Assembly (NCBI GenBank): GCA_022824835.1
Contig: JAJDZB010000074.1
Coordinates: forward strand, 13,260-77,259
Reading direction: 5' to 3'
Origin: Candidatus Poribacteria bacterium
GTDB taxonomy: Bacteria; Poribacteria; WGA-4E; WGA-3G
DNA: 64,000 bases
In this document: positions 26,751 to 55,718 of the stretch, piece after piece
Layout of the letters: every line of letters begins with the position of its first letter
How positions within the stretch are numbered: the stretch's first letter is position 1
Program-made: the position numbers and the translations under genes
The notes under the pieces: model-generated
Told to the model about the DNA's origin: nothing
What the model saw: only the letters and a program-made list of their open reading frames with translations
Databases searched by the model: none

Positions 26751-26850
26751 ACTAAAAAAGTAGGTCGGGTAGAGGAACGAAACCCGACATGAAACCACAT
26801 ACAATAAGCAAAGTCGGGTTTCGCTTCGCTCTACCCATAAATCAACGATG
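26751..26850. repeat. Palindromic repeat family B (..AGTCCAGACTAAA..GTAGGTCGGGTAGAGGAACGAAACCCGACA..), also at 17296-17396
   Basis: Direct comparison of the two loci. Contains the hairpin GTCGGGTTTCG/CGAAACCCGAC. Confidence 0.6.
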
Positions 26851-30473: not shown

Positions 30474-30644
30474 AGGTGTTCCTATAGGTTGTCTGATTTG
30501 ATGAGTAATTCGTCATTCGTGAGATGACCGATGACAAGTTTAGGTTTTTTCATTTAATACCTCTGGCAAAAGGGATTATGTTAATGTCAATTATACATAA
30601 CTTAGATATGAAATTCAAGGTTTTACTACTCGTATATTTGATAT

Positions 30645-30812
30645 AACGTGAGTTTGATAATTAAATGCAATATTCATTGTAGGTTGGGTTGAGGCACGCC
30701 AATCAAATATTAACTGGCAACATGTATTGCTCTATAATGGGTCAAGATGTTGGGTTTCGTTCCTCAACCCAACCTACGTAAGTTATTTGTTCTGATTTAT
30801 CAAACTCACGTT
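30645..30812. mobile_element. MITE family A (TIR AACGTGAGTTTGATAA ... TTATCAAACTCACGTT), inserted between the helicase and methyltransferase genes
   Basis: Full copies with both termini at 30645-30812, 37447-37599, 38751-38883, 43683-43804 and 57703-57822. A partial copy lies at 47745-47822. Confidence 0.75.
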
Positions 30813-30901
30813 GATATAGTAACTTTTCTTTTATTTCTGTATATTGTGTGGTATACTTTTAAGTATGCTTTTATAATCATTTGTGAAAACATAACGAGGA
30901 A

Positions 30902-31108
30902 ATGACCATGCAAACTACCATTATTGAGAAACTTCAGTATCTTTCACCGAAGGACTACGAAGAAGTGCTAAATTTTATTGATTCCTTGTTAACAAAAAAG
31001 GTTTCAGAAGAAAAAAAGAAACCGAATTTGGAGTGGATTGGTGGCTTAATAGAATATCGAGGGCAGTACACAGCACTTGAACTTCAGAAGAAGGCATCAA
31101 ACAGATAG
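30902..31108 (+). CDS. Small hypothetical protein (68 aa), possibly antitoxin-like (resembles the DUF2281-type fold: ..IEKLQYLSPKDYEEVLNFIDSLL..)
   Basis: An ORF with ATG, on the strand opposite to the flanking large genes. The similarity is a weak recollection only. Confidence 0.3.
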   Translation: MTMQTTIIEKLQYLSPKDYEEVLNFIDSLLTKKVSEEKKKPNLEWIGGLIEYRGQYTALELQKKASNR

Positions 31109-31152
31109 GGGAAGACAAGAACCTGCCGATGTGTTGTAAGGAAATCCCCTCA

Positions 31153-34100
31153 TTAGGAAGAAAGACCTAATGAACACACGATTTTGGGTTCTTGCGTTTG
31201 GATTTCTTCTTCAACAATGCAGAGTCGTCCATCGTCCCATAAACCGATCACTAATTCAGCAAGTTTTTCGTTGGAAATACCAGAGCGAAGTTGTCGATTA
31301 AGAATATCTTTTGCCACTGGACGTAGCGGGTAACGATAGATATTTTCTATTACTTGTTTGAGTTCTGGTATTGCGAAGAGAGTCCCTTCTACTTCTGATG
31401 CATAATCTTTTAATCGTTCATAAGTGCGGAAACGTGCTCCAGTTGATCGTCCGAGTTGTCCACCAATTGATCTGCCCTCAGAGACAATGAGTTTTGCTGC
31501 TTCCTCTACAAGGTGATGGTGTTCCTCCAAAGGTTGTAGTGCTTCTGTATCAGGTTTGCATTCTGCTGCTTGTAGAATAGTGAACTGTGATTCTGTTACA
31601 CTCTCTCCATTTTTGTTTATCCATGCCAGCGCGTCGTTATCATCTCCGGTTCTGATATATACCAATGCACCTTCAGGTTGTGTATCTGTGGGTGAGTGCG
31701 GTTTAGTTGAATAAACAACAGATGGGAGTTTGGTGATGATTTTCTCTAAATCTGGGTTTTCGGTAATAGCGTTTTTCCATATCTGGTAGGCGTGAGATGC
31801 AAGGTCTACGTCATTATCCATATCGTCATCAAGTAGTCCAGCATTTTCATGATACAAGTTAACGATTGCTTGGTTTCCATTCTCCCCGTCATCTTCAAAA
31901 AAAGCTTCGTCTGTTCCGACAACCTCAGCGTTTTCTTGTAGACGTGCACGTACGCGTCCGCGTAGATGTATGATACGTTCAACACCTTGTGCGGGTAAAA
32001 AGGAGTAGCACAGTATTTCTTCTGCAGTTTGACCGATTCTGTCAACGCGTCCAGCGCGTTGGACTAAACGTATAATTGCCCACGGCAGATCGTAGTTTAC
32101 GACTATTGCACAGTCCTGTAGATTCTGACCTTCACTCAGAACATCCGTGCTGATGAGGAGGCGCAATTCATCTTCTTTTCTGAAAGCCCCTTTTTTGTTA
32201 TTGCTAATAGGACTGAATCGGGTTGCCAACCACGTAGGATTAGCAGAATCACCGGTAGCTGCTGCTAAGTGAGTCAAACCGCGTTTATCTAATGCTGCTT
32301 TTAGATAATGTACAGTATCAGCGAATTGGGTGAAAACTAAAACCTTTGTATCGGGATGTGTTTGCGTTAATAGTTCCTCAAGAGCGTTAAGTTTGGCATC
32401 TTTTGACTCATCCCAATCACCGTATAGTTGTAGAATCTGGATCAGTGCTTCTGCGTCTTGCGTAAGTTGTTTCTTTAGGATCGGTAAGAATAGATCAGAA
32501 CGGATCCACTTAAAACGGGTGCTGTACTTTGTCAAATAGATTTGATAAATAGCAGCAGCGCGTTCTTTGTATTTTTCAATTGTATACAAATTGGAATGGG
32601 AATCGGTTGTATCAATTAATTCGTCATCCTCATCATCTGAAGTAGCTGAAATGAGATTGACATCATCGTTGTCTGTATCGTTAAATCGTGTATCAAGCAT
32701 AGATGCATCAAGTCCACCGATTGGAAATGGTTCGCCGTTTTCAATTGCATATAAGAAGATATAGTTTCGTAGAATGTGTCGATCAACAGACTGTAAAAAT
32801 GCTTTTCCACTACTTTCAAGCCGTTTGAATAGATTAGTTCGGCAAAATCCCATCAACCGTTTTCCACCACGTGATAGGTCTTGTAGTCGTTCTTTTTCAG
32901 TTTCGGTAGGTGGTTCTGCTGGTGCATCATCAATGTAATTTGCCAGTTCATAACGTGCCAAGTTAAGTCTGTTTATGATATTCACTACATTTTCTGAATA
33001 TAATTGTGCATAAGTGTCGTCAGGATTTTTGTCGTCAATTGTGAACGCAACTGTTTTGGGTGCGCGTGTTGGGAAGTAGGATCGTGTTCCACCTGGAAAC
33101 AGTAGGTATTTTCTTTTTGAGTTGGTATCTTCTTCAGCATAGTTTTGCATGATGAAGCTGCGTGTTCTTCGGACAAGGTATCGCCGCATCAGTTCTCTCC
33201 AATCGTCAATTTCTTCGCTTTTTTCAAACGCTGCGAGGGTGTTTGTCCCGCATTGATGATCACTAAGGAATTTTAGTTCACCAACTTTATTGATGCAATG
33301 GTCTGGACGTATACCGAGGTCTTCAGTTTCATCAACAAAAAGGCGGAGTTGATTTGAGAGATCAAGGAATGATTTGTTGTATGGTGTGGCAGAGAGGAGA
33401 ATGACTTTACTTTCATTTTGCTGGATATAGTCTTGAATTGCTCGGTAACGTTTGCCTTCTCGGTTTCTAAGATTGTGGCTTTCATCAATCATGACTAATC
33501 TGTAACGTCTGAGATCGGGGAGTTCGTTTTGCACTTGACTTATTGAAAGCACTTTTCCACGTAAACGGTATTCTTCACGATAATATTCCCACATCTGGAC
33601 AAGGTTCTTTGGGCAGATGATAAGTGTTTCAAGATCATCCTTGTCTTCCATTATCCTTGCCAGTGCTGTTCCCATAAGTGTTTTACCCAGACCGACAACA
33701 TCACCGATAAGTACACCGTTACGTTTGTTTAGATGGTGTGCTGCGATTTTGACAGCAGCTGTTTGAAAGTCAAAAAGTTTGTCTTCAAAATCGCTTGGTA
33801 TACTGAATTCATTCAAGCCTGCGCGTGCTTCATGTGAAAGGTGATATGCCATTTTTATGTAGATATGATAGGGTGGAATCAACTCCTCACGTGCCCAACT
33901 CTGCTCAATGATTTCGGCTAATTCCTTAGATATATCTATGCACCATCTATCGTTCCATCTATCTTCGAACCAGTTTTGTAATTTCTGACAAGCGTCAGCA
34001 TCAAGCACATCAATGTTGAGTTCTCCCTGTTTTGAGAGTCCAGCGAGTGTTAGGTTACTACTGCCAAGGTAACCCACAATTGGTGCAGCAAGGTCTTGTC

Positions 34101-34539
34101 TGTGTAGTAGGTAAAGTTTGGCATGCAGTGGATGTTGTAGAAATAGTTTGACTTTTACTTTTTCGTTCCGAATTTGGTGTGCTAATTGGCGTAGACCGAT
34201 TTCGTCTTCACGTGTGGGGATTCCGATGGTTAATTGTTCCCGAAATTCCTCTGCTAACTTCTTTTTGATGCGGAGTGCAGTTTGATTATCTAATCTGTCT
34301 GTCTCTTTAATAACGTGCATGGCATGTCGTAGTTTTTCATTGGGGTTTTGATGCATTCCGACGAGTAAACGGCAGCATGCCTCATCTCCACCGTGCCAAT
34401 TTTCAATGTAATTTGCGAGTCTTTTCCAGCCTCTGAGGTTAAAATAACCCACGCAAAAATCTGCATGGGTAGAGGCTTCAAGGGTTTGTTGTAGTGCTTG
34501 AAGGAGCGGTTGGTCAATATTGTCAAAGATTCTGGGCAT
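31153..34539 (-). CDS. PLD-family (HKD) nuclease domain fused to an SNF2/SF2 helicase (1128 aa)
   Basis: The N-terminal ..ADFCVGYFNLRGW..HPLHAKLYLLHRQD..GYLGSSNLT is an HxK...GSxN PLD motif. Helicase motif I is GDVVGLGKT, motif II MIDESHNLRN, and motif VI QRAGRVDRIGQ. Confidence 0.75.
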   Translation of the reverse strand: MPRIFDNIDQPLLQALQQTLEASTHADFCVGYFNLRGWKRLANYIENWHGGDEACCRLLVGMHQNPNEKLRHAMHVIKETDRLDNQTALRIKKKLAEEFREQLTIGIPTREDEIGLRQLAHQIRNEKVKVKLFLQHPLHAKLYLLHRQDLAAPIVGYLGSSNLTLAGLSKQGELNIDVLDADACQKLQNWFEDRWNDRWCIDISKELAEIIEQSWAREELIPPYHIYIKMAYHLSHEARAGLNEFSIPSDFEDKLFDFQTAAVKIAAHHLNKRNGVLIGDVVGLGKTLMGTALARIMEDKDDLETLIICPKNLVQMWEYYREEYRLRGKVLSISQVQNELPDLRRYRLVMIDESHNLRNREGKRYRAIQDYIQQNESKVILLSATPYNKSFLDLSNQLRLFVDETEDLGIRPDHCINKVGELKFLSDHQCGTNTLAAFEKSEEIDDWRELMRRYLVRRTRSFIMQNYAEEDTNSKRKYLLFPGGTRSYFPTRAPKTVAFTIDDKNPDDTYAQLYSENVVNIINRLNLARYELANYIDDAPAEPPTETEKERLQDLSRGGKRLMGFCRTNLFKRLESSGKAFLQSVDRHILRNYIFLYAIENGEPFPIGGLDASMLDTRFNDTDNDDVNLISATSDDEDDELIDTTDSHSNLYTIEKYKERAAAIYQIYLTKYSTRFKWIRSDLFLPILKKQLTQDAEALIQILQLYGDWDESKDAKLNALEELLTQTHPDTKVLVFTQFADTVHYLKAALDKRGLTHLAAATGDSANPTWLATRFSPISNNKKGAFRKEDELRLLISTDVLSEGQNLQDCAIVVNYDLPWAIIRLVQRAGRVDRIGQTAEEILCYSFLPAQGVERIIHLRGRVRARLQENAEVVGTDEAFFEDDGENGNQAIVNLYHENAGLLDDDMDNDVDLASHAYQIWKNAITENPDLEKIITKLPSVVYSTKPHSPTDTQPEGALVYIRTGDDNDALAWINKNGESVTESQFTILQAAECKPDTEALQPLEEHHHLVEEAAKLIVSEGRSIGGQLGRSTGARFRTYERLKDYASEVEGTLFAIPELKQVIENIYRYPLRPVAKDILNRQLRSGISNEKLAELVIGLWDDGRLCIVEEEIQTQEPKIVCSLGLSS

Positions 34540-35231: not shown

Positions 35232-36014
35232 TCAACGGGATTTAATGTTGCCCCATGTCGTGGTGAGTTTTGATTCGGGTTCTACAGACAGAAATTCACC
35301 ATCTTTTACCTGATTGATTTCGCTTTCAGATAATGCGCGTGCAAAAATGTAATAATCATCTAACAACCCTTGATACCATCTATCATTTTTGTGGTGTCCA
35401 ATTCCTGCGTTCACTCCCCATTCAGCAGATAGTTTTCCACTTCCCTTAACAGAGTGCGTTTCTTTACCATCAATATAGGTTTTCGCATCTCCACTGTCAC
35501 TATCATAGGTGCCTGCGAAATGAACCCATTCACCTGCATCAATTACGGGGCCCGGATTGATATTAAAGACAGTCGTATTTGTCTCGTTTCGGTGAAAAAA
35601 ACGGAATCCGCCAGGACGAATTTCCATGTGATAAAGTCCACTTTCAATTGTTGTACCAATGGCATCAAGCAATGTTTGCGGATTGGGGGAACCGTTATGG
35701 TTAACCCAGACTGCTAATGTAAATCCGTCTACTGGACCGTTCTCAAATTCCGGACCATTCATATTAACCCATATATTGGTATCTAAAGCGATGGCTTTTC
35801 CATAGACACCTTTTTCCCATGTAGCATTTCCCTGAACTTCGCCATCGTTCCCGTTTTTTGATCCATCTTTAACCGTTTTACTTTCTTCATCAAAGCTATA
35901 GTAAACGGACAGTGTCGGGTCATTTAAATCAGCCTGAACGGAAAATACACATGTCCCCAAAAATATCAATACGGTTAGAAAGATGGGTAGTTTCTTACTA
36001 ATGTTGATATACAT
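35232..36014 (-). CDS. Secreted LamG-like (concanavalin-A-like lectin/glucanase) domain protein
   Basis: Signal peptide; LSVYYSFDE...DGS.NGNDG..G.A.W..G..GKAIALD fits the pattern of a Laminin_G_3-type domain. C-terminus ..VEPESKLTTTWGNIKSR. Confidence 0.6.
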   Translation of the reverse strand: MYINISKKLPIFLTVLIFLGTCVFSVQADLNDPTLSVYYSFDEESKTVKDGSKNGNDGEVQGNATWEKGVYGKAIALDTNIWVNMNGPEFENGPVDGFTLAVWVNHNGSPNPQTLLDAIGTTIESGLYHMEIRPGGFRFFHRNETNTTVFNINPGPVIDAGEWVHFAGTYDSDSGDAKTYIDGKETHSVKGSGKLSAEWGVNAGIGHHKNDRWYQGLLDDYYIFARALSESEINQVKDGEFLSVEPESKLTTTWGNIKSR

Positions 36015-36036: not shown

Positions 36037-36837
36037 TTAACGGGATTTAATATTTCCCCATGTGGTTGAGAGTTTATCTTGTGGTTCAACTGGTGTTACA
36101 AAGGCGCCTTCCATAATTTGCTGTATTTCATCTGCAGACACCGCGCGTGCAAAGATGTAATATTCATCTAGCATTCCGTTAAACCACCGAGCGTTCTTAT
36201 GGTGTCCGATTCCTGCCGAAACTCCCCAATTGGCTGCGAGTTCTCCCCCACCGACAGCACTGTGGGTTTCCTCACCATCAACATAAGTCTTTATCTCACC
36301 ACTTTCGGTATCATAAGTTCCTGCAAAATGAACCCACTTATTTGCCTCTAATACTGGACCAGGATTTATATTAAAGACAGTAGTATTCGTATGGTTTCTA
36401 TGGAAGAATCGGAATCCGCCAGGACGAATTTCCATGTGGAATAGTCCACTTCCATGGTCAGTACCGATTGCATCCAGGAGTGTCTGAGGATCAGATGAGC
36501 CTGTATGATTAACCCAAGTGGCTATTGTGAATCCGTCACTGGGAAGATTTTGAAATTCGGGACCGTTCATGTCAATCCACGAATCTGTTTCTAAGACAAT
36601 CGCTTTCCCCATTACACCGTCTGCTCTATTGACGTTGCCGACTATGGTTCCATCATTACCACTTAGGGAACCGTCAACGACAGTTTCACCTTCTCCATCA
36701 AAACTATAGTAGACAGAAAGTGTCTCATCACTCAGGTCAGCATTGACAGTGAATGTGAAAACAGATAGCAGGGCAGCTACTACAGTCAAGATTTGAAACG
36801 CTCTCATTAATTCAAAACGCATTTTATTATTCTCCAA
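36037..36837 (-). CDS. Secreted LamG-like domain protein, a paralog about 60% identical to 35232-36014
   Basis: Same architecture. C-terminus ..VEPQDKLSTTWGNIKSR. Confidence 0.6.
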   Translation of the reverse strand: MENNKMRFELMRAFQILTVVAALLSVFTFTVNADLSDETLSVYYSFDGEGETVVDGSLSGNDGTIVGNVNRADGVMGKAIVLETDSWIDMNGPEFQNLPSDGFTIATWVNHTGSSDPQTLLDAIGTDHGSGLFHMEIRPGGFRFFHRNHTNTTVFNINPGPVLEANKWVHFAGTYDTESGEIKTYVDGEETHSAVGGGELAANWGVSAGIGHHKNARWFNGMLDEYYIFARAVSADEIQQIMEGAFVTPVEPQDKLSTTWGNIKSR

Positions 36838-37153: not shown

Positions 37154-37446
37154 TCTAAAAACCGATGTTAAAACAGTAGTATCAAGCAGGGCACCAAAGC
37201 AATCTCTGCACAGACAATAGACATCTGGTGCGTTTATTTGGATAAAATGATGGTTCCTCTGTCGGTTATTCATTGTTCCTACTCAAAAAAAATTCCAAGA
37301 CTGTATACTAAAGAACATAGTAACGTCTTTTTCCTTCGGAATTTCAACTACAAATAGATTATACTTTATTTAACGTTTTCCATTTTACAAATCTTTCTGA
37401 TTTTTGTCAACAAAAAATGTTTCATACTTACAATCTACCTATTATT

Positions 37447-37599
37447 AATGTGAGTTTGATAATTAAATGCAATATTTGTTGTAGGTCGGGTAGAGGCACG
37501 AAACCCGACATGTATTGCTCTATAATGGGTCAAGATGTTGGGTTTCGTGCCTCAACCCAACCTACGTAGGTATTTGTTCTGATTTATCAAACTCACGTT
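37447..37599. mobile_element. MITE family A full copy
   Basis: aatgtgagtttgataattaaatgcaatatt...ttatcaaactcacgtt, about 90% identical to the 30645-30812 copy. Confidence 0.75.
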
Positions 37600-37824
37600 A
37601 TTATTAACAGGACTTACGCAAAATGACCAAATTTTACCTATTTTCACAGGATTCGGTACGGTTAGGAAACCGCACCTACCGGGGGGCTCACATAGCGGTT
37701 AGGAAACCGAACCTACCGGGGGTTCACATGTTTTTAGATTTTACTATAATAACACTTCTATTTCATGGACATGTGCCGATATCCTGTGTTATCATGTAAT
37801 AAAACGAAGAAGGAGATTGATATA

Positions 37825-38682
37825 ATGAAACATAGTGTTATAATTCGCTGCATGATTATATGTATCCTCTTTTCCGCAATGATGATCTTACCCGCTTATG
37901 CAACAGATGTGACTGTTGGATTTTTGGCAGGAAGCAATCAACTCGGTGAAGTAGAGGAAGCTGCTTATGAATGGGTAGCGGATACATTTCAGACGAAAAT
38001 GCTTATTGCTGATAAGAGTGGTAACTTTAAAACGAATAACGGGTCAGCGATGAAGTTAGACCAATTTGCTGTGTTATGGCTTTTCTATACAGAAACGAAC
38101 ACGTTGCCGGATCCCTTTCTTGAGAATGCAACGAAAAAGGAGCTCCTCGATTATTTGGAGGCGGGTGGTAGTATATTCCTCTCTGCACTCGGACTTAAAT
38201 ATGTTATAGATTTAGAGGTTGATGAAGGGAATGTACGTGTCTTTCAACCACTCGGTAAAGGTCCCCCCGAAATAGGTGTTATGGCAACTGATGATCATAA
38301 AGACCATCCTGTGTTTGAAGGTTTTGATACCGGTGATCCCATTTTTCTTACCAGTATGGATCAAGCAGGTTTTACCGCAGATTTCATCAATTTTAATGCA
38401 AGTCCTCCCGCGGGTAAGATACTTGGTATGAAAACGCGTGGTGGTGGTGCAGGTGCCGGAGAACGTCCACTTGTTGAATATGATGTGGATGATGGAAAAA
38501 TCATCACACTCGGACATCACAACGGGGTCTATACCGATACGAACTCTAAGGAGGGTGAGAACCTGAGAAAACTATCTGAGAACGTGCTTAATTACCTCGG
38601 TGAAACTTCTGTGTTTTTTGATGTTGAACCCGATGGGAAATTGGCAACTACATGGGGTCATCTGAAGTCTGCATTGAGATAG
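37825..38682 (+). CDS. Secreted protein with a glutamine-amidotransferase-class-I-like / DUF4159-like core and the same C-terminal tail as the LamG proteins
   Basis: The signal peptide MKHSVIIRCMIICILFSAMMILPAYA makes ATG 37825 preferable to 37765. C-terminus ..VEPDGKLATTWGHLKSALR. The fold assignment is tentative. Confidence 0.5.
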   Translation: MKHSVIIRCMIICILFSAMMILPAYATDVTVGFLAGSNQLGEVEEAAYEWVADTFQTKMLIADKSGNFKTNNGSAMKLDQFAVLWLFYTETNTLPDPFLENATKKELLDYLEAGGSIFLSALGLKYVIDLEVDEGNVRVFQPLGKGPPEIGVMATDDHKDHPVFEGFDTGDPIFLTSMDQAGFTADFINFNASPPAGKILGMKTRGGGAGAGERPLVEYDVDDGKIITLGHHNGVYTDTNSKEGENLRKLSENVLNYLGETSVFFDVEPDGKLATTWGHLKSALR

Positions 38683-38750
38683 TATTGTAAGTGTTCGCAT
38701 TAAAATCGTATTTTTGTAGAAGTGATCTCCAAATCGGAGATCCTCCTACA

Positions 38751-38883
38751 TAGTACGTATAGCGTGGGTTTGATAAATCAGATTTTCCCAGACATGTATT
38801 GCTCTATAATGGGTCAAGATGTTGGGTTTCGTGCCTCTACCCAACCTACGTAAGTTATTTGTTTGATTTATCAAACTCACGTA
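38751..38883. mobile_element. MITE family A copy
   Basis: agcgtgggtttgataa...ttatcaaactcacgta. Confidence 0.7.
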
Positions 38884-38908
38884 CTTACAGGTTAATTACA
38901 GATCACAA

Positions 38909-39256
38909 CTATAGCAGATCATCGTGCGGTTCTACTTGTCTAACGCCAATAGCTGGATTTAGACGAGAATGATGCATTAGCCAATAAGCAACAGTAACTA
39001 TTATTCCGCCAAAAAGTGTGGCAATTAACCATATCTCAGCCTGAACGAAAATAGCACTTCCCCTCTGCTTTGCATCCCGATATATGCCGATAGCAAAAGA
39101 GATATGTACAATTGCTACGAATATAATAAAGAAAAAACTCCAAAATCCTAATATAATTAACTCAAAGAATGCTAATCCCATGCCCATGATAATTCCTCCG
39201 TTTTGTTCTGGTATATGTTTAGATATTTCGTTTACATGTGTGTTGGTGAACTCCAC
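38909..39256 (-). CDS. Small integral membrane protein (3 TM helices)
   Basis: 115 aa and hydrophobic (..LAFFELIILGFWSFFFIIFVAIVHISFAIGIY.. ..IWLIATLFGGIIVTVAYWLM..). It lies directly downstream of the helicase gene, and the two genes may overlap. Confidence 0.5.
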   Translation of the reverse strand: MEFTNTHVNEISKHIPEQNGGIIMGMGLAFFELIILGFWSFFFIIFVAIVHISFAIGIYRDAKQRGSAIFVQAEIWLIATLFGGIIVTVAYWLMHHSRLNPAIGVRQVEPHDDLL

Positions 39257-42200
39257 TTCTCCATATAGTTAGACGGCATTTCGTGGATAAACATAGATGT
39301 TACCTGTCCTCGGTCATTGAAACGGTATACAGCAGAAGATAGATAGAGTTGTTTCTGTGCACGCGTCATGCCTACATAGAACAGACGACGTTCCTCTTCA
39401 AGTTCCTCCAATGTCAGGCTACTTCTACCTATTGGAAAATTCCCATTCTCCATCCCTATTATAAAGACAACCGGAAATTCTGTGCCTTTTGCAGCATGTA
39501 ATGTCATGAGTGTGAGTTGCTCTGTTTTATTATCAAGTTCATCAAAACTGGTCAGTAGTTTCTGGTAATCTAAGAAATCGATCAGCCGATGTCCGTATCC
39601 CGCTTTTTCAAAGTTTAGGACAACATTCAGGAATCGCGACTTGTGTTCAATCCAATCACTGTCCTCCTTGTCAACAAGGACATCAGACTTCCTAAGCAAA
39701 TTTAAGAATTCAGTTACCTGTTCTTTCTCTGTCTGTTCAAGAGGCACATCATCAGGAAAGACATTATGATTGACTTTCACATACCTTTTCGCAGCATTTA
39801 GATATGCTTCAATTTCAGGTGATATTTCCGCTTCATCAATATCAGAGGTTTTAGCAAGGATGCCGAGCCCAACCCAGGGTAAGAATTCAGTGAGTGATTT
39901 TAGCTGCTGTTTCTGTGTGTCAATTCTGATGAGTTCCTGGAAGATTTTGCGGTTGACTTCTACATCCTCCGGTGCACTATGTAGCTGTTCGTATCCGATT
40001 CCGAATTTTTCAGCGAGTGCCTGAATTCCGCGTCGCTGTCTTGGGAAAAGCCTTCGCGCTGTAACCAACGTGTCATAATGCGGATTCGGTAATCCTCGTT
40101 TCAGGTGTTCTTGAAGAACACGTTCAAGTATAGGATTGTCATAATTCGCGACATTGTGTCCGATGAGGATACGATCTTGAATGAAACGACAAAATTCGGG
40201 AAGCACCATTTCAATACTCGGGCAATTTTTAACGGTCTCTTCATCTATACGGTGTATTCGGGTAGTTTCTCTCGGTATGTGTCCACCCGGGGGTTTTACT
40301 AATCTATAGTATCGTTCTATTCCATCCCCAACAGTATTGAGACGTTGTGCGGCTATCTCAACGATGTTCGCATATCTCGTATCAACGCCAGTTGTTTCTA
40401 AATCGTATATGACCATATCTGCCATGTTTGGTGATTCGAAACGACTCAATAGACGTTGACAGAGCCTAAAGGCATCAATGCTGCGAATACCGTCAGATTG
40501 AAGTTGAAGTGTACTGATACCCTCTGCAGCGGTTGTTCCGATTATTATAATGCGCGAATCTGCTGATGTTTCGTCCAACTCACCGAAATCTCCAATCAAG
40601 AGATTGATTCCATTTTCGCTCAGATGTGGCTTACTTCTGTCCGTATCCTTCGGTAATAGTTGTATCTCTACATTCTTATTCAGATAGGTTTTGAAGGTCT
40701 GATGTATGATACTTGCTGCACAGTATTCATCTACACCGTAGCTTGCAGTAATTGTAATGGGTTCATCTCGATTAAGCGCGCTATACAGTACATCTTGTAT
40801 AAGGGAGACATTCTGCATTTCGGGTTGTCTTTCAATTGTTACCAGTTCTTTTTGACGGTATGGCGAACGAAAGATATTCAATGTAACAAAGAGTTTTTGA
40901 GCGATTTTGTCTATTTTCTCTTTCTCTATTCCGTCTGATAGATTTTTCAGTTCCTGCCAAAATCGATGGATATTACGTCTCGTTAATGGACCAACATCCT
41001 CTGGGTATTCCTCAATGTTCTCCAACAGTTCTACTAAAGTTATGTTATTTCGTAATGCCAACCACTTGAGGCGTACCCACGTAAGATCATCAATTCGTTT
41101 TTCAGGAAAGTTGATCGCATTCTCAAGGTCTTGGGGGAGTTGCCACTCAATGAAACGGAGATAGGAGTATATACCTTTACTGATTTCTTCATCAAGAGAG
41201 TTTGTAGGTCGGATACGTTGAAATTTTATCTGCTGCTTGAGCAATTCCTCTGCTAAAACATCCGCAAGTTTATGTGTTCGGTAGAAGATGGCGATATCGC
41301 GATAGGAGACACCCCGATGCATAATCAGATTTCGGATGATTTTTATGATATTTTGTGCTTCCTCAGTTGCTGTACTGAACGTATAGTGAAATATATTCCG
41401 TCCGACGTCTTTGTGTGTTTTAAGCGTGTGCTGTTTTTGTCTTTCCGTATTCCTACCGATGACCTCTTCTGCAGCCCGTAGTATTTTCTCACTACACCGA
41501 TAGTGTTCATCCAATTCAACGATTTCGGGTGAGAAATCATCTATAAAATGTTCAATATACTGCGGATTAGATCCGCGCCAACTGTAAATTGATTGATCAG
41601 CATCCGCAACTACCATCAGATTATTGTTCGGGGATGCACTGATGCGTTTAAGTAACGCGTACTGGACACTATTCACATCGTGGTATTCATCCACAAGGAT
41701 ATAAGAGATGTTTTTGTGGTAATCGTTTTGTATTTCTGATTCCTGTTTGAAAAGTTCAACCGTCTTAACGAGAAGATCGTCAAAGTCAAGTGCATTGTAT
41801 TCTGTGAGTTTGTGCTGATATGCACTGATTGCCCGCTTTATGTTTTCTGCTGCATCTGGATCATCTATTTCTGCGATTATGTCAGGATCAATTTCCAAGT
41901 CATCAGTTATATTTTTAAGTTTACATTTTGCGTCACTGATGATATTTCGCAATCGCCATGAAGGATAGATGCGTGAGTTAAGGTGCAATTCGCGTGCCGC
42001 CTCTTCCAAGATTTCGTCTTGAATTTCTTGATCAAAGATGGCGAAGTTTTCACTGAGCCCTATCCGTTGTGCGTGTTTTCGTAGTACCTTTACACAGAAT
42101 GCATGAAAGGTGCTGACCTTTATGTCAGATCCGTGTGGTTCACCGATTTCATTGTTAACCCGTTCCCGCATCTCTTCTGCTGCTTTATTCGTGAAGGTGA

Positions 42201-42369
42201 TTGCAAGGATGTTATAGGGTTTGATTCGATGTTCGCGAATTAGGTAGGCGATGCGGTGTGTAATGACTTTCGTTTTACCGGTACCTGGACCCGCAATAAC
42301 GAGTATCGGTCCATCTTTATGTTTGACTGCTTCAGTCTGTTTTTCATTTAAATCGTGTAAAATGTTCAT
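39232..42369 (-). CDS. UvrD/PcrA-family SF1 helicase with a DnaQ-like DEDDh 3'-5' exonuclease domain inserted between helicase motifs IV and V
   Basis: Motif I AGPGTGKT, motif II DEYHDVN, motif III VVADADQSIYSWRG, motif IV YRCSE. Exonuclease Exo I is VIYDLETTGV, Exo II IGHNVANYDNPIL, Exo III HSAPEDVEV. Helicase motifs V and VI follow (LHAAKGTEFPVVFIIG, RRLFYVGMTRA). Confidence 0.75.
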   Translation of the reverse strand: MNILHDLNEKQTEAVKHKDGPILVIAGPGTGKTKVITHRIAYLIREHRIKPYNILAITFTNKAAEEMRERVNNEIGEPHGSDIKVSTFHAFCVKVLRKHAQRIGLSENFAIFDQEIQDEILEEAARELHLNSRIYPSWRLRNIISDAKCKLKNITDDLEIDPDIIAEIDDPDAAENIKRAISAYQHKLTEYNALDFDDLLVKTVELFKQESEIQNDYHKNISYILVDEYHDVNSVQYALLKRISASPNNNLMVVADADQSIYSWRGSNPQYIEHFIDDFSPEIVELDEHYRCSEKILRAAEEVIGRNTERQKQHTLKTHKDVGRNIFHYTFSTATEEAQNIIKIIRNLIMHRGVSYRDIAIFYRTHKLADVLAEELLKQQIKFQRIRPTNSLDEEISKGIYSYLRFIEWQLPQDLENAINFPEKRIDDLTWVRLKWLALRNNITLVELLENIEEYPEDVGPLTRRNIHRFWQELKNLSDGIEKEKIDKIAQKLFVTLNIFRSPYRQKELVTIERQPEMQNVSLIQDVLYSALNRDEPITITASYGVDEYCAASIIHQTFKTYLNKNVEIQLLPKDTDRSKPHLSENGINLLIGDFGELDETSADSRIIIIGTTAAEGISTLQLQSDGIRSIDAFRLCQRLLSRFESPNMADMVIYDLETTGVDTRYANIVEIAAQRLNTVGDGIERYYRLVKPPGGHIPRETTRIHRIDEETVKNCPSIEMVLPEFCRFIQDRILIGHNVANYDNPILERVLQEHLKRGLPNPHYDTLVTARRLFPRQRRGIQALAEKFGIGYEQLHSAPEDVEVNRKIFQELIRIDTQKQQLKSLTEFLPWVGLGILAKTSDIDEAEISPEIEAYLNAAKRYVKVNHNVFPDDVPLEQTEKEQVTEFLNLLRKSDVLVDKEDSDWIEHKSRFLNVVLNFEKAGYGHRLIDFLDYQKLLTSFDELDNKTEQLTLMTLHAAKGTEFPVVFIIGMENGNFPIGRSSLTLEELEEERRLFYVGMTRAQKQLYLSSAVYRFNDRGQVTSMFIHEMPSNYMEKWSSPTHM

Positions 42370-42538
42370 TTTTTTGTCATTACCATCTGTTAGAAAATAA
42401 ATACAGAGAACGGCACAATCTGGAAGAATGTGCTACAATAACTACAATAAAGGGGCATTATCAATTAGAAATGGTATAAGTATATAACAGATATCCCAAA
42501 AATACAAGGAATTTGCGTATTTACCAGAGTGATTCCTG

Positions 42539-43615
42539 TCAACAATATCTGATTTCTTCCAATACCACGGTTGCGTAGCTGCCAGCAGGTAATGTAAAAG
42601 AGAGATGCACCCCGTTGTCAACTGCCGTTACTTGATGTAAATCCATCTGAATCCGCAGCGGTCTACGTGTACCTGATAATCGCACACCCGCAACCTTGCG
42701 AAAAGACTCTGGTTTAACTCTCTCCGCCGATAGTAGTTCTTGCTCCATTTCCAAAACTTTACCTGTAGGTTGCCGCATTTTGTACCCGAAGATAGGACCG
42801 GAAGGACTAATTTCAAACGCATCTGCCCGGGGTTGTTCAATCTCCGCGTTTTCAACGAGGAAAGGTGCACTATTACGATGCTTGATGGCTATATCACCAT
42901 TTAACAACTTCCCTAAATCTGGTAATCTTCTCTCCACAATACGATTAAACAGATGTGCCTGATATGCGGATAGGTAGAGTTTCCGCATACGGTGTGGCAT
43001 ATAAGCGACTACTTTTTCAAGTGAATCATGCTTTTTCATATCTTTGATCCGCTTTGCCAAGTTAGTGAACTGTGCCGTTTCAGTATCCAGAACATATTCT
43101 AATACCCTCTCCCAGTCTTTATTCAGTAATGCTTTCCCTATCAGGTGTGAATCCTGTTTATTGCCGAATCGCTGTTCACCATACCGATTCGGTACACCTT
43201 CAGCAGATAATTGTGTTATTTTTTTCTCAACATTGGGTAAGGTATGCGGCGCAGTCCAACGCACTGTTATTTCAAAACGATTGGCTTTAAGATGTCCTAC
43301 ACGTAATTTATGTGAATGTCGTTCTGCCCATAAAACTTCAATTCGATGGATATTTAGTTTCAAAATTTGTTCAGGTGGAATTCCTTCAACAGATAATACT
43401 TGCGTTGTGATTGCATGTTTGTCCTTCAGACCGGCATATCCAATACTTCTATGATTCACGTGGAGTTCACGCGCAATTCGGTTTATAGCCTCATAAGTAC
43501 TGAGACTGCGTTTCCGAATAGCGAAGAAGGTATGTGTGCCTGATCGTGAAGGTGTATATAAAGGTATTTCTTCAACGATGAAGTCTTCAGGTTCAAATCT
43601 CATATAGTTCTCCAA
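42539..43615 (-). CDS. truD: tRNA pseudouridine(13) synthase TruD
   Basis: N-terminal ..EPEDFIVEEIP....GTHTFFAIRK.. and the catalytic-loop motif GYAGLKDKHAITTQ. Confidence 0.8.
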   Translation of the reverse strand: MENYMRFEPEDFIVEEIPLYTPSRSGTHTFFAIRKRSLSTYEAINRIARELHVNHRSIGYAGLKDKHAITTQVLSVEGIPPEQILKLNIHRIEVLWAERHSHKLRVGHLKANRFEITVRWTAPHTLPNVEKKITQLSAEGVPNRYGEQRFGNKQDSHLIGKALLNKDWERVLEYVLDTETAQFTNLAKRIKDMKKHDSLEKVVAYMPHRMRKLYLSAYQAHLFNRIVERRLPDLGKLLNGDIAIKHRNSAPFLVENAEIEQPRADAFEISPSGPIFGYKMRQPTGKVLEMEQELLSAERVKPESFRKVAGVRLSGTRRPLRIQMDLHQVTAVDNGVHLSFTLPAGSYATVVLEEIRYC

Positions 43616-43682
43616 GAATTTATTGCACTTGACATCTGTCCCTTTTTATGCTAAATTAAACGAAGAAATAATTACTATAATG

Positions 43683-43804
43683 AACGTGAGTTTGATAAAT
43701 CAGATTTCCGTATCCGGTGCGGTTAGGAAACCGCACCTACCGGGTCTGTGTGAGTAATATTTTGGGTTAAATGAAGTCTATATACCTGTTATCAAACTCA
43801 CGTT
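43683..43804. mobile_element. MITE family A copy carrying the GGTTAGGAAACCGCACCTACCGG module
   Basis: TIRs aacgtgagtttgataa / ttatcaaactcacgtt. Confidence 0.7.
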
Positions 43805-43847
43805 ATAATGACAATTCACGATCCAAAAATAAGGTTCACAAAAGCAC

Positions 43848-45746
43848 ATGCCAAAAATCAGAATCCTCTCAGCAGATGTAGCGAATAAAATTGCTGCCGG
43901 TGAAGTTGTTGAACGTCCTGCATCTGTCGTAAAAGAGCTCATAGAAAACGCAATGGATGCCGAAAGTACAAGCATCCGAGTTGAAATTCGGGCAGGGGGT
44001 AAGAGTCTTATTCGTGTGTCGGACAACGGAACCGGTATGGAACGTGAAGACGCACTCCTCGCTTTAGAGCGCCACGCTACCAGCAAAGTCAATAACATAG
44101 AAGACCTCGAAAATATTAACACCTTCGGTTTCCGTGGTGAAGCGTTAGCAAGTATTGCCTCTGTATCACAGTTTGAACTCCTAACCCGCACCGCAGATGC
44201 GGTTCAAGGTACAAAAATTAGTGTTGATGGAGGTGTGTTCCGTTCTGTTGAGGAGAGTGGGTGTTCCCCCGGCACACACATCTCTATTAATAACCTTTTC
44301 CACAATGTACCAGCGCGCCTCAAATTCATGAAGACTGAGACAACTGAATCAAACCATATCACTAAGCAGGTGACCTGGGCTGCGTTAGCACACCCGAAGA
44401 TACATTTTATCCTCTCTCATAACGGTAGATCCATCTTGGATGTGCGTGCATGCGATTCAAATCTGGAACGTGCCAGATTGGTATATGGCAAAGAATTTGC
44501 AGATAACCTTATAGAATTCAATGAAGAACTGCCAGATTTCAAGCTATCAGGTATGCTCGGAAAACCTGATTTTACCAAACCCAACAGAGAATATCAACTC
44601 TTTTTCATGAATCAACGTCCGATTCGTAGCAGTATGATCGCTGCAGCACTCAAAGAGGCACTCGGTGCAACAATTCAGAAGGATCGTCATGCTGTAGCGG
44701 TGCTCTTTATGACGGTTGAACCCAATACGGTTGATGTGAACGTCCATCCGGCTAAGATAGAGGTGCGATTCCGAAATGAACGCACGATTTTCAGCGGAAT
44801 TGTGAAGATGCTTCGTAACGTCATAAATAGAGAGAAATTTATACCGAAAATTGAAACAACTGTAGATAGAACAGCTGAAAGAACTCATACTGAAGATGTC
44901 CCGGTTGGAAATGCATATATTGACACGGGAAGAAAAACCTTCACACCGCAATCCACAACACAACCGACTAATTCTACAGATAGAAATGTAGAACGGGTTG
45001 AGACACCCGCAAGAGAAGCGAGACCCACTACAAAAATTGAATCTGCACCTATTGACACTGAACCTAAAGTTGACGAAGGTAGTAAAACAGATACGCAAGT
45101 ACCCAGAACCGTAATGCAACCGCCACAGCAGACCATCCCAGAAGGTGTGAAACTCAAACTCTTTGATTTTGAGAATGTGGAGTTGAAAGCAAATCTATTC
45201 AAAACATATATTGTTGCTGAAGGTAAAGATAAAGTCTTTTTTATTGACCAACATGTTGCTGCGGAACGGGTGCTCTATGAACGATTCGTGAACCAACTCA
45301 AGTCAGAGGGAATTCCTGTGCAGGGATTATTACTTCCCGTTACTGTTGAGGCAACGCCACAACAGATTGCCGTTTTTAAAGTGCATGGTGAGATTTTTGA
45401 GAAACTCGGTTTTGAACTGGAAGAATTCGGTGGCAATACGATACTCATCCGTGCCATGCCCGCCCCGCTACCCACGCGAGTTGCTGCACAGACAATAACG
45501 GATATACTTGACAAACTCCCCGAACAACCGCACGGTGAAGTCGCGTTACCCAAAGCGATAGATGATGCGTTGATAACGCTTGCCTGCCGTGCTGCTGTAA
45601 AAGCTGGCGATACTTTAGATACTAAAGAGATGATCAACCTCGTACGCGAGTTATCAGAAGCAAAGCATCCTTTCAATTGTCCACATTCACGACCGATTAT
45701 CATTGAAATGGGACGTGATGAATTGGAGCGCCGGTTTCACAGATAA
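43848..45746 (+). CDS. mutL: DNA mismatch repair protein MutL
   Basis: MPKIRILSADVANKIAAGEVVERPASVVKELIENAMDA.. is the GHKL ATPase N-terminus. The C-terminal dimerisation domain is present. Confidence 0.9.
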   Translation: MPKIRILSADVANKIAAGEVVERPASVVKELIENAMDAESTSIRVEIRAGGKSLIRVSDNGTGMEREDALLALERHATSKVNNIEDLENINTFGFRGEALASIASVSQFELLTRTADAVQGTKISVDGGVFRSVEESGCSPGTHISINNLFHNVPARLKFMKTETTESNHITKQVTWAALAHPKIHFILSHNGRSILDVRACDSNLERARLVYGKEFADNLIEFNEELPDFKLSGMLGKPDFTKPNREYQLFFMNQRPIRSSMIAAALKEALGATIQKDRHAVAVLFMTVEPNTVDVNVHPAKIEVRFRNERTIFSGIVKMLRNVINREKFIPKIETTVDRTAERTHTEDVPVGNAYIDTGRKTFTPQSTTQPTNSTDRNVERVETPAREARPTTKIESAPIDTEPKVDEGSKTDTQVPRTVMQPPQQTIPEGVKLKLFDFENVELKANLFKTYIVAEGKDKVFFIDQHVAAERVLYERFVNQLKSEGIPVQGLLLPVTVEATPQQIAVFKVHGEIFEKLGFELEEFGGNTILIRAMPAPLPTRVAAQTITDILDKLPEQPHGEVALPKAIDDALITLACRAAVKAGDTLDTKEMINLVRELSEAKHPFNCPHSRPIIIEMGRDELERRFHR

Positions 45747-45768: not shown

Positions 45769-47733
45769 GTGGAGGGGACTTCCATGAAAATAGTACGGCT
45801 ATCCCTCATAACCCTTCTCTTCAATTTTCTACTAATCCTACCAAACACCTTTGCTCAAGATTATACAACTTGGAGTCTACCCGATGGTGCGATGGCACGA
45901 CTCGGTAAAGGTAAAATAACTGGTAATATAGCTTTCTCACCTGATGGTAATCGGCTTGCGGTTGCCAGTTCTATCGGTATATGGATTTATGATGTGCGTC
46001 CTGGAAAAGAAAAGGAACTCGATTTACTCACTGGACATACAGGAAGTGTCACCGTCATTGCATTCTCTCCTGATGGCAAAATACTCGCAAGTGGTGGTAG
46101 AGACGAAACGATACGATTATGGGACGGTGTAACGGGAGAACAGAAAAAACAACTCACAGGACACAAATGGGCAATATCTGCATTAGCGTTTTCACCTGAT
46201 GGAAAGACACTTGCATCTGCGATTGGACTTGAGGCTGAAAAGATACCCGCAGAGATAGGTATAGAGATAGATGTTAAATTATGGAACATAGATACAGGTG
46301 AAGCCACAGCGACATTCAGAGGTCACGGTAAAGATATTACTTCATTAGCGTTTTCACCTGATGGAAAGACACTTGCAAGTAGTGGTAAGGATAGCAAGGT
46401 ATTATTGTGGAATGTTGCAACTGGCAGAAATGCCATGCTATTTACTGAACATGATGAAAATATTTTCTACATAGGTTTTTCACCTGATGGAAAAACTATC
46501 GCTACAGGCAGCTGGGACGACACCGTGAAACTTTGGGATGCAACGACAAGTAGTCTCAAGAATACAATTATTGAGAAAGGGTTTGTAGGTGTTTCTTCAG
46601 TAGCATTTTCACCTAAAGACTCAACTATTGCTGTCGGAGGCCACGATATAATTCGGCTTTGGGATCTGCAGACAAAAACCCATATAAGGTCATTCAAGGG
46701 ACATGGTGGAAACATTTCTTCAATTGCATTTTCTCCAGATGGCAACACGTTTGCCACTGTTGGTGATAGGTTTGATAATACAATTATGTTATGGGATTTA
46801 CAGGTAGCGAGACATAGAACAACAATTAAGGACCATACTTCAGCCGTTACGTGTTTAACATATTCCCCGGATAGCAAAACAATTGCCTCAGGCATGATGA
46901 ATGGTGATGGCTATTTATGGGATGCGCAGACAGGAGAACGCAAGGCAACACTAAAGGAACATTACGATGAGATACAATTTATAACCTATACATCTGATGG
47001 CAGTACCATCATTACCGGGGGACGGAATAGGTCAGTCCATCAATGGGAGGGACGCAAACGTCTACTACAGACACGGACAAGAAAACCGAAATCTTCACTT
47101 CGTCTTGCAACAACCTCCGGTGTTTCTCGTATTCGATCAATGACATACTCTCCCGATGCTAATTTCGTTGCAGCTACAGGTAGGGACAAATGGATTCTGA
47201 TGATATGGAATGCCAGAACTGGACGTAAGGTAAATGTTCATAGCGATCTATCACATAGATCATGGCGTGTTCTCTTTTCTCCAGATGGTAGTATTCTTGC
47301 AGAGGCAGATAATACTTTGAAAATCCGATTGTGGAATCCTAAAACAGGACAGATCACAAAAACGTTAAACCTACATGGCCGTTTTGAACAAAGAAATACG
47401 CACATGGCATTTTCTGCTGATGGTAAACTCTTAGCTAATACAAGAGAAGAGGATACTGTGCAAATTTGGGATGTGGCATCGGGAAAAGAGGTAGCTTTGA
47501 TGAAAATGCCAGAATCGGGTGTTACAAAAGTCCAGTTTTCACCCAACGGTGCTTTAATTGCTACAGGTTTTAAGGATGGCACGATGCACATATTTAGTAG
47601 GCACACAGAGGAACACTTAGCAGGTTATAAAGGACATACGGAAGGTATTTCTGCCCTCACATTTTCTCCTGATAGTCGTGCGATTGCCAGTGGTAGTGAT
47701 GATGGGACTATCCTCATCTGGGAATTGCAGTAG
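45769..47733 (+). CDS. Secreted WD40 beta-propeller repeat protein (654 aa)
   Basis: Signal peptide; at least 12 WD40-like repeats with recurring (A)FSPDGK(T)LAS..D..(V)KLWD motifs. Confidence 0.8.
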   Translation: MEGTSMKIVRLSLITLLFNFLLILPNTFAQDYTTWSLPDGAMARLGKGKITGNIAFSPDGNRLAVASSIGIWIYDVRPGKEKELDLLTGHTGSVTVIAFSPDGKILASGGRDETIRLWDGVTGEQKKQLTGHKWAISALAFSPDGKTLASAIGLEAEKIPAEIGIEIDVKLWNIDTGEATATFRGHGKDITSLAFSPDGKTLASSGKDSKVLLWNVATGRNAMLFTEHDENIFYIGFSPDGKTIATGSWDDTVKLWDATTSSLKNTIIEKGFVGVSSVAFSPKDSTIAVGGHDIIRLWDLQTKTHIRSFKGHGGNISSIAFSPDGNTFATVGDRFDNTIMLWDLQVARHRTTIKDHTSAVTCLTYSPDSKTIASGMMNGDGYLWDAQTGERKATLKEHYDEIQFITYTSDGSTIITGGRNRSVHQWEGRKRLLQTRTRKPKSSLRLATTSGVSRIRSMTYSPDANFVAATGRDKWILMIWNARTGRKVNVHSDLSHRSWRVLFSPDGSILAEADNTLKIRLWNPKTGQITKTLNLHGRFEQRNTHMAFSADGKLLANTREEDTVQIWDVASGKEVALMKMPESGVTKVQFSPNGALIATGFKDGTMHIFSRHTEEHLAGYKGHTEGISALTFSPDSRAIASGSDDGTILIWELQ

Positions 47734-47825
47734 TTTTTCTCAGGGTTTTCGGGTAGGTTTCGGTTCGGTTAGGAAACCGAACCTACCGGCACGGGGAAAA
47801 TCTGATTTATCAAACTCACGTTATA

Positions 47826-55565: not shown

Positions 55566-55718
55566 TTTGATATTTCCTTCTATATAGTGAAATCTATAGT
55601 TACTTTTACATCCCCGGTAGGTGCGGTTTCCTAACCGCACGGGTATTCTCGGATCCAGGGCGGTTAGAAACCGCACCTACCGGAGGAGTGCGTAAGTCCT
55701 TTATAATGCGTAAGTCCT

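Follow-up and report, generated by a model that had tools for sequence, protein, structure and literature searches.

Why would a UvrD/PcrA-type helicase hold a complete exonuclease within its own fold, and does such a protein maintain the chromosome or defend it? The question is raised by a gene in a 64,000-nucleotide stretch of DNA, here called the window, from the chromosome of Candidatus Poribacteria, a sponge symbiont; the top protein matches of the window and the 40 genome loci compared with it are all labeled Poribacteria. Because EF-G, EF-Tu, and SecY are encoded in it as well, the window represents core chromosome. The neighbors of the helicase gene are a small membrane open reading frame (ORF), the gene of a DUF4960 protein, truD, and mutL. 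An initial annotation, made from the letters alone, had described a helicase with an embedded exonuclease domain and a membrane protein partner, and had left the choice between a repair enzyme and an immunity protein. We found that the gene founds a recognizable, uncharacterized family of superfamily 1A (SF1A) helicases with a DEDDh exonuclease in the 2B subdomain, present in Poribacteria and Chloroflexota, two phyla with sponge habitats in common. It is most likely a self-contained helicase-exonuclease that serves DNA repair or replication.

A DEDDh exonuclease domain within subdomain 2B

Pfam placed UvrD-helicase at residues 7-279 of the protein (E value, 1e-83) and UvrD_C in a split match spanning residues 285-1013 (E value, 1e-42). 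The SF1A motif set (I, Ia, II, III, IV, V, and VI) was complete, catalytic residues included; the motifs read in the protein were GPGTGKT, DEYHD, LHAAKGTEF, and RRLFYVGMTRA, together with YDLETTG, HNVANYD, and HSAPED of the nuclease. The top NCBIfam model was that of PcrA (TIGR01073), which scored 517.8 bits in two stretches, below its equivalog cutoff of 911.2. Compared with the PcrA of G. stearothermophilus (chain 2PJR), identity was 32% across 524-540 aligned columns, which correspond to the N-terminal part of the helicase. An AlphaFold2 (AF2) model of the full protein, built from a 50-sequence alignment, had a predicted local distance difference test score (pLDDT) of 88.2 and a predicted template-modeling score (pTM) of 0.82. 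In Foldseek, the closest solved structure was the closed PcrA-DNA complex 3PJR, with a target-normalized template-modeling score (TMt) of 0.83; the values for 2IS1 and for apo open PcrA (1PJR) were 0.80 and 0.70. The four-subdomain fold 1A/1B/2A/2B was borne out by comparison of the model with 3PJR and 2IS1.

Alignment with PcrA located the departure from this fold. In a phmmer search of the PDB, residues 3-454 matched PcrA 8-450 and residues 904-1038 matched PcrA 506-648. About 450 residues thus stand where PcrA has about 55, a net gain of approximately 380-390 residues inside 2B. The TIGR01073 alignment reaches residue 522, which sets the insert proper at about 523-903. It consists of an alpha/beta subdomain, the nuclease, and a helical segment that returns into 2B. 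The helices of the return segment span residues 827-841, 851-867, 879-894, 901-923, and 929-937 in the AF2 model, and its last part, residues 904-947, aligns with PcrA 506 to about 550.

The nuclease was recognized in comparisons of both sequence and structure. Pfam RNase_T matched residues 653-810 with 97.3 bits against a cutoff of 24, NCBIfam models of DEDD and PolC-type exonucleases matched residues 650-830, the PADLOC DEDDh model matched with an E value of 3.5e-32, and the PDB sequence match was the T. maritima PolC exonuclease (E value, 5e-23). A separate structure model of residues 515-944 (pLDDT, 88.7) matched 8H2F (TMt, 0.87), the Pol III epsilon structure 2GUI (TMt, 0.84; root mean square deviation, 1.7), and the ExoX structure 4FZY (TMt, 0.82). 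Further fold matches were the PolC exonuclease, S. aureus DinG, RNase T, Cas2-DEDDh, ExoX (4FZX), and ExoI (1FXX), and the RNase H-like exonuclease fold was borne out by the comparison with these DEDDh structures. The residues of Exo I (DxE), Exo II (D), and Exo III (Hx4D) are all in place. The predicted exonuclease activity rests on these intact catalytic residues and on the known properties of the family.

The alpha/beta subdomain is of another kind. A Pfam search with it gave no match, and D547 and A633 are its only conserved residues. Its profile gave a borderline match to the N terminus of RecJ DHH (E value, 0.0018) that lacks the catalytic DHH residues, a resemblance that is at most a hint of ancestry.

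The initial annotation was therefore right about the core of the protein: it had read a UvrD/PcrA-like helicase with all SF1 motifs, in agreement with Pfam, NCBIfam, and the motifs themselves, and a complete ExoI/ExoII/ExoIII DnaQ-type exonuclease, in agreement with the RNase_T score, the catalytic residues, and the fold. Both domain types that it had singled out for a search, RNase_T/DnaQ and UvrD_C, were matched by Pfam. It had also put the insert correctly between motifs IV and V in 2B, as the phmmer alignment confirms, and had underestimated its size at about 330 residues.

Conservation of motor and nuclease across two phyla

An exhaustive search with HMMER, covering 1.84 billion representative proteins, brought up proteins of about 1000-1100 residues that matched over their full length in one stretch, with identities as low as 29%. 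Nine matches were checked, and all of them carry RNase_T at the same place within UvrD_C. A profile search started from distant members yielded further Poribacteria and proteins named Anaerolineae or Chloroflexi; the distant members are 24-39% identical to the window's protein, and the named ones among them are Anaerolineae/Chloroflexi. In the GTDB genome set, 40 Poribacteria species have a full-length orthologue, at one locus each and with 59-95% identity. Neither the 64-kb window nor the approximately 650 kb of Poribacteria loci examined contains a second UvrD/PcrA. The proteins of the family are currently labeled either "UvrD-helicase domain-containing protein" or "DNA polymerase III epsilon subunit family exonuclease," and a full-text literature search found no description of a DEDDh domain lodged within a UvrD helicase. 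For genome annotation, the fused genes that now carry such generic UvrD or Pol III epsilon labels make up one distinct, recognizable family.

We aligned 198 fused sequences, divided into a near group of 130 (at least 45% identity to the query) and a far group of 68. Motor residues K32, D227, E228, Q259, R265, R291, K961, and R995 are kept in at least 194 members. In the nuclease, the five DEDDh residues D656, E658, D744, H797, and D802, plus H738 and N739, are kept in 197-198 members. Since the residues of both active sites are nearly invariant, both sites are under purifying selection, and both activities, as predicted from sequence, appear to be selected for. Nuclease and motor are also conserved to the same extent overall, with 73% and 74% identity in the near group and 37% and 38% in the far group. 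Conservation is far lower in the other two parts of the insert, the helical segment and the alpha/beta subdomain; identity within the latter drops from 59% (near group) to 24% (far group).

The family departs from canonical PcrA/UvrD at three further points. The GIG motif of 2B, which Lee and Yang reportedly found in 2006 to touch duplex DNA, is replaced: PKRGIG of PcrA aligns with PEKRID of the query. D427, which stands for the second glycine of GIG, occurs in 193 of the 198 members, and the replacement is a family trait. The C-terminal Tudor domain is missing, as the query has no PF21196 match and ends 32 residues past UvrD_C; in the same search, PF21196 was borne by the canonical PcrA matches and not by the fused family. 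Because GIG is replaced and Tudor is absent, duplex handling and recruitment must differ from those of canonical PcrA/UvrD. Third, in only part of the family, motif II (residues 226-230, positions 41680-41694) reads DE(Y/F)HD where DE(Y/F)QD is usual. The histidine is found in all 130 members of the Poribacteria clade, in 29 of the 68 distant members, and in 1 of 123 gathered UvrD/PcrA sequences of canonical length. DE(Y/F)HD was rejected as a signature of the whole family, since the other 39 distant members keep glutamine.

Inheritance and surroundings of the gene

The coordinates of the gene, its domains, and other features of the window are given in Table 1. Limits of the motor domains follow the alignment with PcrA/UvrD and the known structures of those proteins. 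A promoter and terminator scan of positions 38600-43900 gave no signal exceeding the shuffled expectation.

Table 1. Positions of the helicase-exonuclease gene, its parts, and other features in the window (aa, amino acids)
Feature	Positions	Strand	Description
Helicase-exonuclease gene	39232-42369	-	1045 aa; SF1A UvrD/PcrA type with DEDDh exonuclease inside 2B; from ORF list, Pfam, NCBIfam, AF2, Foldseek
Residues 1-388	41206-42369	-	Domains 1A/1B and N-terminal part of 2A; Walker A GPGTGKT, motif II DEYHD, motifs III-IV; aligns with PcrA 8 to ~385
Residues 389-520	40810-41205	-	N-terminal part of 2B; R-I-D (425-427) in place of GIG
Residues 521-648	40426-40809	-	Alpha/beta subdomain of insert, poorly conserved; AF2 secondary structure H-E-H-E-E-E-E-H
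Residues 649-825	39895-40425	-	DEDDh (DnaQ/RNase T-type) 3'-5' exonuclease domain; catalytic D656, E658, D744, H797, D802
Residues 826-947	39529-39894	-	Helical segment returning into C-terminal part of 2B
Residues 948-1045 and stop	39232-39528	-	C-terminal part of 2A; motifs V (TLMTLHAAKGTEF) and VI (EEERRLFYVGMTRA); no Tudor domain
Small hydrophobic ORF	38909-39187	-	92 aa from ATG 39187; Shine-Dalgarno GGAGGA 39199-39194, six bases ahead; neighbor only
truD (tRNA pseudouridine synthase D)	42539-43615	-	Upstream of and codirectional with helicase; Pfam TruD, E value 8e-95
mutL	43848-45746	+	Endonuclease type (DQHVAAERVLYE motif); divergent from truD; Pfam MutL_C, DNA_mis_repair, HATPase_c_3
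Schlafen/AlbA_2 ATPase	23945-25324	-	
Eco57I/MmeI-type methylase	27150-30473	-	1107 aa
PLD-nuclease and SNF2 helicase protein	31153-34539	-	1128 aa
Laminin_G_3 protein	35232-36014	-	N-terminal signal-like segment
Laminin_G_3 protein	36037-36837	-	N-terminal signal-like segment
DUF4960 protein	37765-38682	+	N-terminal signal-like segment
WD40 beta-propeller proteins (three)	45769-47733; 57843-59840; 59892-61934	+	654-680 aa; signal-like N termini
Repeat family one	30644-30812; 37446-37599; 38788-38882; 17312-17394; 26760-26791		
Repeat family two	43683-43804; 57703-57822; 37651-37683; 47755-47789; 55600-55683		

The identities of truD and mutL as neighbors of the helicase gene, already given in the initial annotation, were confirmed by Pfam. 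Among the 40 Poribacteria loci, the flank includes truD, upstream of the helicase gene, in 25 and mutL in 18. The identity of each helicase to that of the window was closely correlated with truD identity (r=0.97, n=25) and with mutL identity (r=0.96, n=18). The divergence of the helicase thus tracks that of truD and mutL, which argues for vertical descent. In five distant members, the gene is surrounded by housekeeping or metabolic genes (RelA/SpoT, PMT_2, phosphoglucomutase, TrmO, and CTP transferase), with no neighbor in common. A location of the helicase gene on a mobile element is not supported.

The motif DQHVAAERVLYE, read from the translation of the mutL gene, fits DQHA(X)2E(X)4E, the definition of the MutL endonuclease motif. 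Because its MutL carries this motif, the organism probably uses MutH-independent mismatch repair.

Directly downstream of the helicase gene, as the initial annotation had stated, lies a small hydrophobic ORF. The possible overlap with the helicase stop did not hold up: it belongs to a 115-aa version, a longest-ORF call from GTG that we consider an artifact. The start common to orthologues is ATG 39187, which leaves a gap of 44 nucleotides to the helicase stop (39232-39234), and other annotations of the ORF give 88-91 aa. Likewise, three transmembrane segments are present only in the long form, with two in the ATG form by a simple hydropathy count. Tblastn and ORF inspection found the ORF in only 7 of the 40 loci (L001-L004, L018, L030, and L033), all with helicases at least 80% identical to the query; elsewhere, the downstream gene encodes a protein beginning MRIDCQSHIFP or something else. 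Co-occurrence of helicase and membrane protein is therefore confined to the closest loci. Relatives of the small ORF form 12 clusters among 5.8 billion proteins, the only named one being from Poribacteria, and no family for it was found in Pfam, NCBIfam, or PADLOC. As a functional partner the ORF was rejected, since 33 of the 40 loci lack it and its distribution is that of an orphan gene limited to one Poribacteria subclade.

At least two families of dispersed intergenic repeats, about 90-170 nucleotides long and resembling miniature inverted-repeat transposable elements (MITEs), some with internal inverted symmetry, fill many of the gaps between genes of the window. The two repeats nearest the helicase gene had been taken for copies of a single element, MITE-A, that flank the gene pair. 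They are unlike elements. The repeat at 38788-38882 groups with those at 30720-30811 and 37504-37598, the repeat at 43683-43804 groups with that at 57703-57822, and the two families have only about 23 nucleotides in common. The second repeat does not bracket the pair either, as it is sited beyond truD, between truD and mutL. A MITE-bounded cassette was rejected, because the flanking repeats belong to different families and the helicase gene occupies the same truD-linked site across the phylum.

The Schlafen/AlbA_2 ATPase, methylase, and PLD-SNF2 genes probably make up a restriction/defense island, with the ribosomal-protein/SecY region on one side and the helicase region on the other. The two Laminin_G_3 proteins and the DUF4960 protein share a C-terminal motif, KL(S/T/A)TTWG(N/H)(I/L)KS, which may be a sorting or anchoring signal; an ORF at one of the other loci (L038) has the similar ending KLTTIWADLKA. 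The three WD40 proteins are encoded within 16 kb, and eukaryote-like repeat proteins of this sort are typical of sponge symbionts.

Proposed function and comparison with known systems

In E. coli, mismatch repair employs the helicase UvrD together with the exonucleases ExoI/ExoX. The window's protein may combine both tasks in one polypeptide. Its complete motifs and PcrA fold suggest that the PcrA/UvrD-type motor would bind single-stranded DNA, move along it 3'-5' at the expense of ATP, and open the duplex. The DnaQ/ExoX-type exonuclease, rigidly mounted on 2B in the predicted structure, would then degrade the 3'-ended strand bared by the motor. If the two predicted activities are coupled with this polarity, they could serve strand excision or 3'-end trimming, in repair or at stalled replication intermediates. 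The principle would be that of WRN, in which a RecQ helicase is joined to a DEDD exonuclease, and of the DinG of Firmicutes, a helicase joined to a DEDD exonuclease that, according to two reports, degrades single-stranded DNA 3'-5' (PMC12525004, PMC3270479). Subdomain 2B would have been repurposed for this, with GIG replaced and the C-terminal Tudor domain, which binds RNA polymerase, absent. On balance, we consider it probable that the gene encodes a vertically inherited, chromosomal genome-maintenance enzyme that works on its own, as one polypeptide chain, without a dedicated partner; no partner gene is conserved beside it.

Several observations weigh against this interpretation. In complexes of PcrA/UvrD with DNA, 2B lies over the duplex ahead of the motor, and the 3' tail of the tracked strand exits on the 1A side; with this geometry, the nuclease may be unable to reach the 3' end of the tracked strand and may act on another 3' end instead. 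In the Poribacteria clade, motif II has the unusual histidine described above. In one Poribacteria species (L039; CBDAUH010000002.1, 6001-11627), the helicase orthologue is in three pieces, separated by insertions of about 1.1 and 1.3 kb with ORFs (334 and 425 aa) that resemble transposases. Broken by these two insertions, the gene is apparently a pseudogene and dispensable in that one species, which speaks against a strictly essential role. A probable restriction/defense gene pair lies about 4.4 kb from the helicase gene. Finally, the synteny with mutL is seen only in Poribacteria and is absent from the five distant contexts examined.

The last point bears on the pathway. The adjoining endonuclease-type mutL is suggestive of mismatch excision; being confined to Poribacteria, the synteny is weak evidence for such a role. 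A bolder version of the proposal would make the protein a self-sufficient strand-excision machine, with 2B turned into a nuclease platform, that in Poribacteria and Anaerolineae replaces the helicase plus ExoI/ExoX downstream of the MutL endonuclease. It would thereby supply MutH-independent mismatch repair with its excision step, which is so far undefined, and rotation of 2B would mechanically couple unwinding to 3'-5' degradation. We regard this full scheme as distinctly improbable.

Could the gene instead encode a helicase-nuclease that acts against phages or plasmids as Nhi, Hna, or Gabija GajB do, perhaps in a two-gene cassette moved by MITEs together with the membrane protein? Helicase-nuclease fusions are common in defense systems, PADLOC GajB models match the helicase with up to 347 bits, the DEDDh model matches the insert strongly, and the methylase, PLD-SNF2, and Schlafen/AlbA_2 genes lie in the same window (27150-34539 and 23945-25324). 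The PcrA model, however, scores higher, at 518 bits, and neither the ORF list nor Pfam revealed a GajA-like gene adjoining the helicase; the GajB matches thus reflect generic UvrD similarity, and on these grounds Gabija or any other PADLOC system was rejected. Nhi and Hna were absent from the best 25 of 52 PADLOC matches. None of the best 80 UvrD-like loci of IMG/VR has an exonuclease insert, all being of ordinary length; no phage or plasmid record in INPHARED and PLSDB covers more than 50% of the insert module; and no viral predicted structure has the same architecture, the best query-normalized score (TMq) being 0.41. A phage or plasmid origin was rejected, as the insert module was not found in the phage, plasmid, and viral-contig collections searched. 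The single locus in each of 40 species, with divergence that tracks truD and mutL, the housekeeping surroundings of distant members, the dispersed and mutually unlike repeats, and the absence of the membrane ORF from most loci all point the same way. A defense cassette with a membrane partner is not supported, and a defensive role of any of these kinds seems very unlikely. Of the two functions first offered, repair is thus favored by synteny and vertical descent, and Nhi/Hna-style immunity with a membrane partner is not. The initial annotation had itself named conserved truD-helicase synteny and a nonconserved membrane ORF, along with the lack of any other UvrD/PcrA homolog in the genome, as signs of a housekeeping role, and its suggested survey of neighborhoods and phylogenetic distribution came near to this outcome, with the synteny at 25 and the ORF at 7 of the 40 loci. 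For defense mining the case is a caution, since strong matches to GajB and DEDDh models can stem from a core housekeeping gene.

Two other explanations accept a chromosomal role and differ over the nuclease. The protein could resolve replication-transcription conflicts or R-loops, its motor stripping or unwinding RNA-DNA hybrids and its DEDDh domain chiefly degrading the RNA strand as a 3'-5' exoribonuclease, the role suggested for B. subtilis DinG. Domains of the DEDDh/RNase T type accept RNA as well, and the fold of the insert matches RNase T and DinG; one report describes B. subtilis DinG as a 3'-5' exo(ribo)nuclease that eases replication stress (PMC12525004), and PcrA/UvrD acts at transcription complexes through its Tudor domain (10.1101/2020.07.06.189035). 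In the present family, however, the C-terminal Tudor domain by which PcrA/UvrD is tethered to RNA polymerase is missing, the nearest sequence relatives of the nuclease are the DNA-proofreading PolC and epsilon domains, and the gene contexts give no pointer to transcription, all of which make this an unlikely alternative. Alternatively, the protein could be the organism's canonical PcrA/UvrD, engaged in nucleotide-excision repair, mismatch repair, and replication as an accessory helicase, with the insert serving 2B only passively or in regulation, for instance as a platform for dimerization or partner binding, and with its nuclease chemistry unused. The core is indeed nearest to PcrA in both score (518 bits) and structure (TMt, 0.83), the alpha/beta subdomain is poorly conserved, and 2B is a regulatory and dimerization element of UvrD-family helicases, according to two reports (PMC13238157, PMC11912403). 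Yet the five DEDDh residues, H738, and N739 are kept in 197-198 of 198 members across two phyla, and the nuclease is conserved as much as the motor, which would be unexpected for a purely structural remnant. We therefore find a silent nuclease hard to believe.

The proposed genome-maintenance enzyme can be set beside several known systems. With PcrA, UvrD, and Rep (3PJR, 2IS1, and 1UAA) it shares complete motifs I-VI and the 1A/1B/2A/2B fold; it differs from them in about 390 extra 2B residues with an active-looking DEDDh nuclease, R-I-D for GIG, the lack of Tudor, a score of 518 bits against the equivalog cutoff of 911, and DEYHD in the Poribacteria clade. Subdomain 2B of UvrD-family helicases has been the center of a long debate in the literature on motor switching by rotation, dimerization, and partner binding. 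Here is a 2B in which the duplex-contacting motif has been replaced and a complete proofreading-type exonuclease grafted in, kept as a family across at least two bacterial phyla. If the activities are coupled, the family would offer a natural system for how 2B geometry governs the fate of the unwound strand. UvrD and ExoI/ExoX of methyl-directed mismatch repair likewise pair a 3'-5' helicase of SF1A with a 3'-5' exonuclease of the DEDDh type, and Poribacteria have mutL next to the gene; E. coli makes the two activities as separate proteins, whereas here the link to mutL is a synteny of one phylum and the MutL is of the endonuclease type.

RecB, AddA, and AdnB have the same motor family and a nuclease that degrades the unwound DNA (Foldseek E values, 1e-15 to 1e-23). 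Theirs is a C-terminal PD-(D/E)xK (RecB-type) nuclease in heteromeric complexes, unlike the DEDDh domain inside 2B found here. The NCBIfam addA and recB models match the helicase parts only, far under their cutoffs, and the window's protein has no C-terminal PD-(D/E)xK nuclease, as no residues are left after 2A. Gabija GajB has a UvrD-type core, and the helicase-plus-nuclease theme is common to GajB, Nhi, and Hna; here there is no GajA, no variable island or mobile element, and vertical inheritance across the phylum. The domain order of the window's protein is also unlike that of Nhi and Hna. A protein of an uncultured Caudovirales phage in BFVD (A0A6J5QNL6, 1206 aa, labeled "DNA 3'-5' helicase") has two segments that each match about 180-200 query columns, one at 34% identity; it is possibly a further helicase that has gained an exonuclease-like domain, in another arrangement.

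The closest parallels in design are WRN and DinG, of which the present family would be a compact SF1A counterpart if its two activities are coupled. WRN and bacterial RecQ-exonuclease fusions likewise unite a 3'-5' helicase with a 3'-5' DEDD-family exonuclease; their motor is a superfamily 2 (SF2) RecQ, the nuclease is terminal, and homology extends only to the nuclease fold. Genes labeled "RecQ family ATP-dependent DNA helicase" on Thermus megaplasmids (H1, NC_017588.1 21072-21674, and H6) have a DEDDh domain 31-33% identical to that of the insert and are such bacterial WRN-like fusions. Firmicute DinG (8ZEF and 9II8) likewise carries its helicase and a DnaQ-type 3'-5' exonuclease on a single chain, with matching nuclease folds, and the same two reports propose that it has a role in replication stress (PMC12525004, PMC3270479). 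Its nuclease is N-terminal on an XPD-like SF2 (5'-3') helicase, whereas here the nuclease lies inside 2B of an SF1A (3'-5') helicase. Helicase-nuclease fusions as a kind are already known; what is new is a DEDDh exonuclease within the 2B subdomain of an SF1A helicase.

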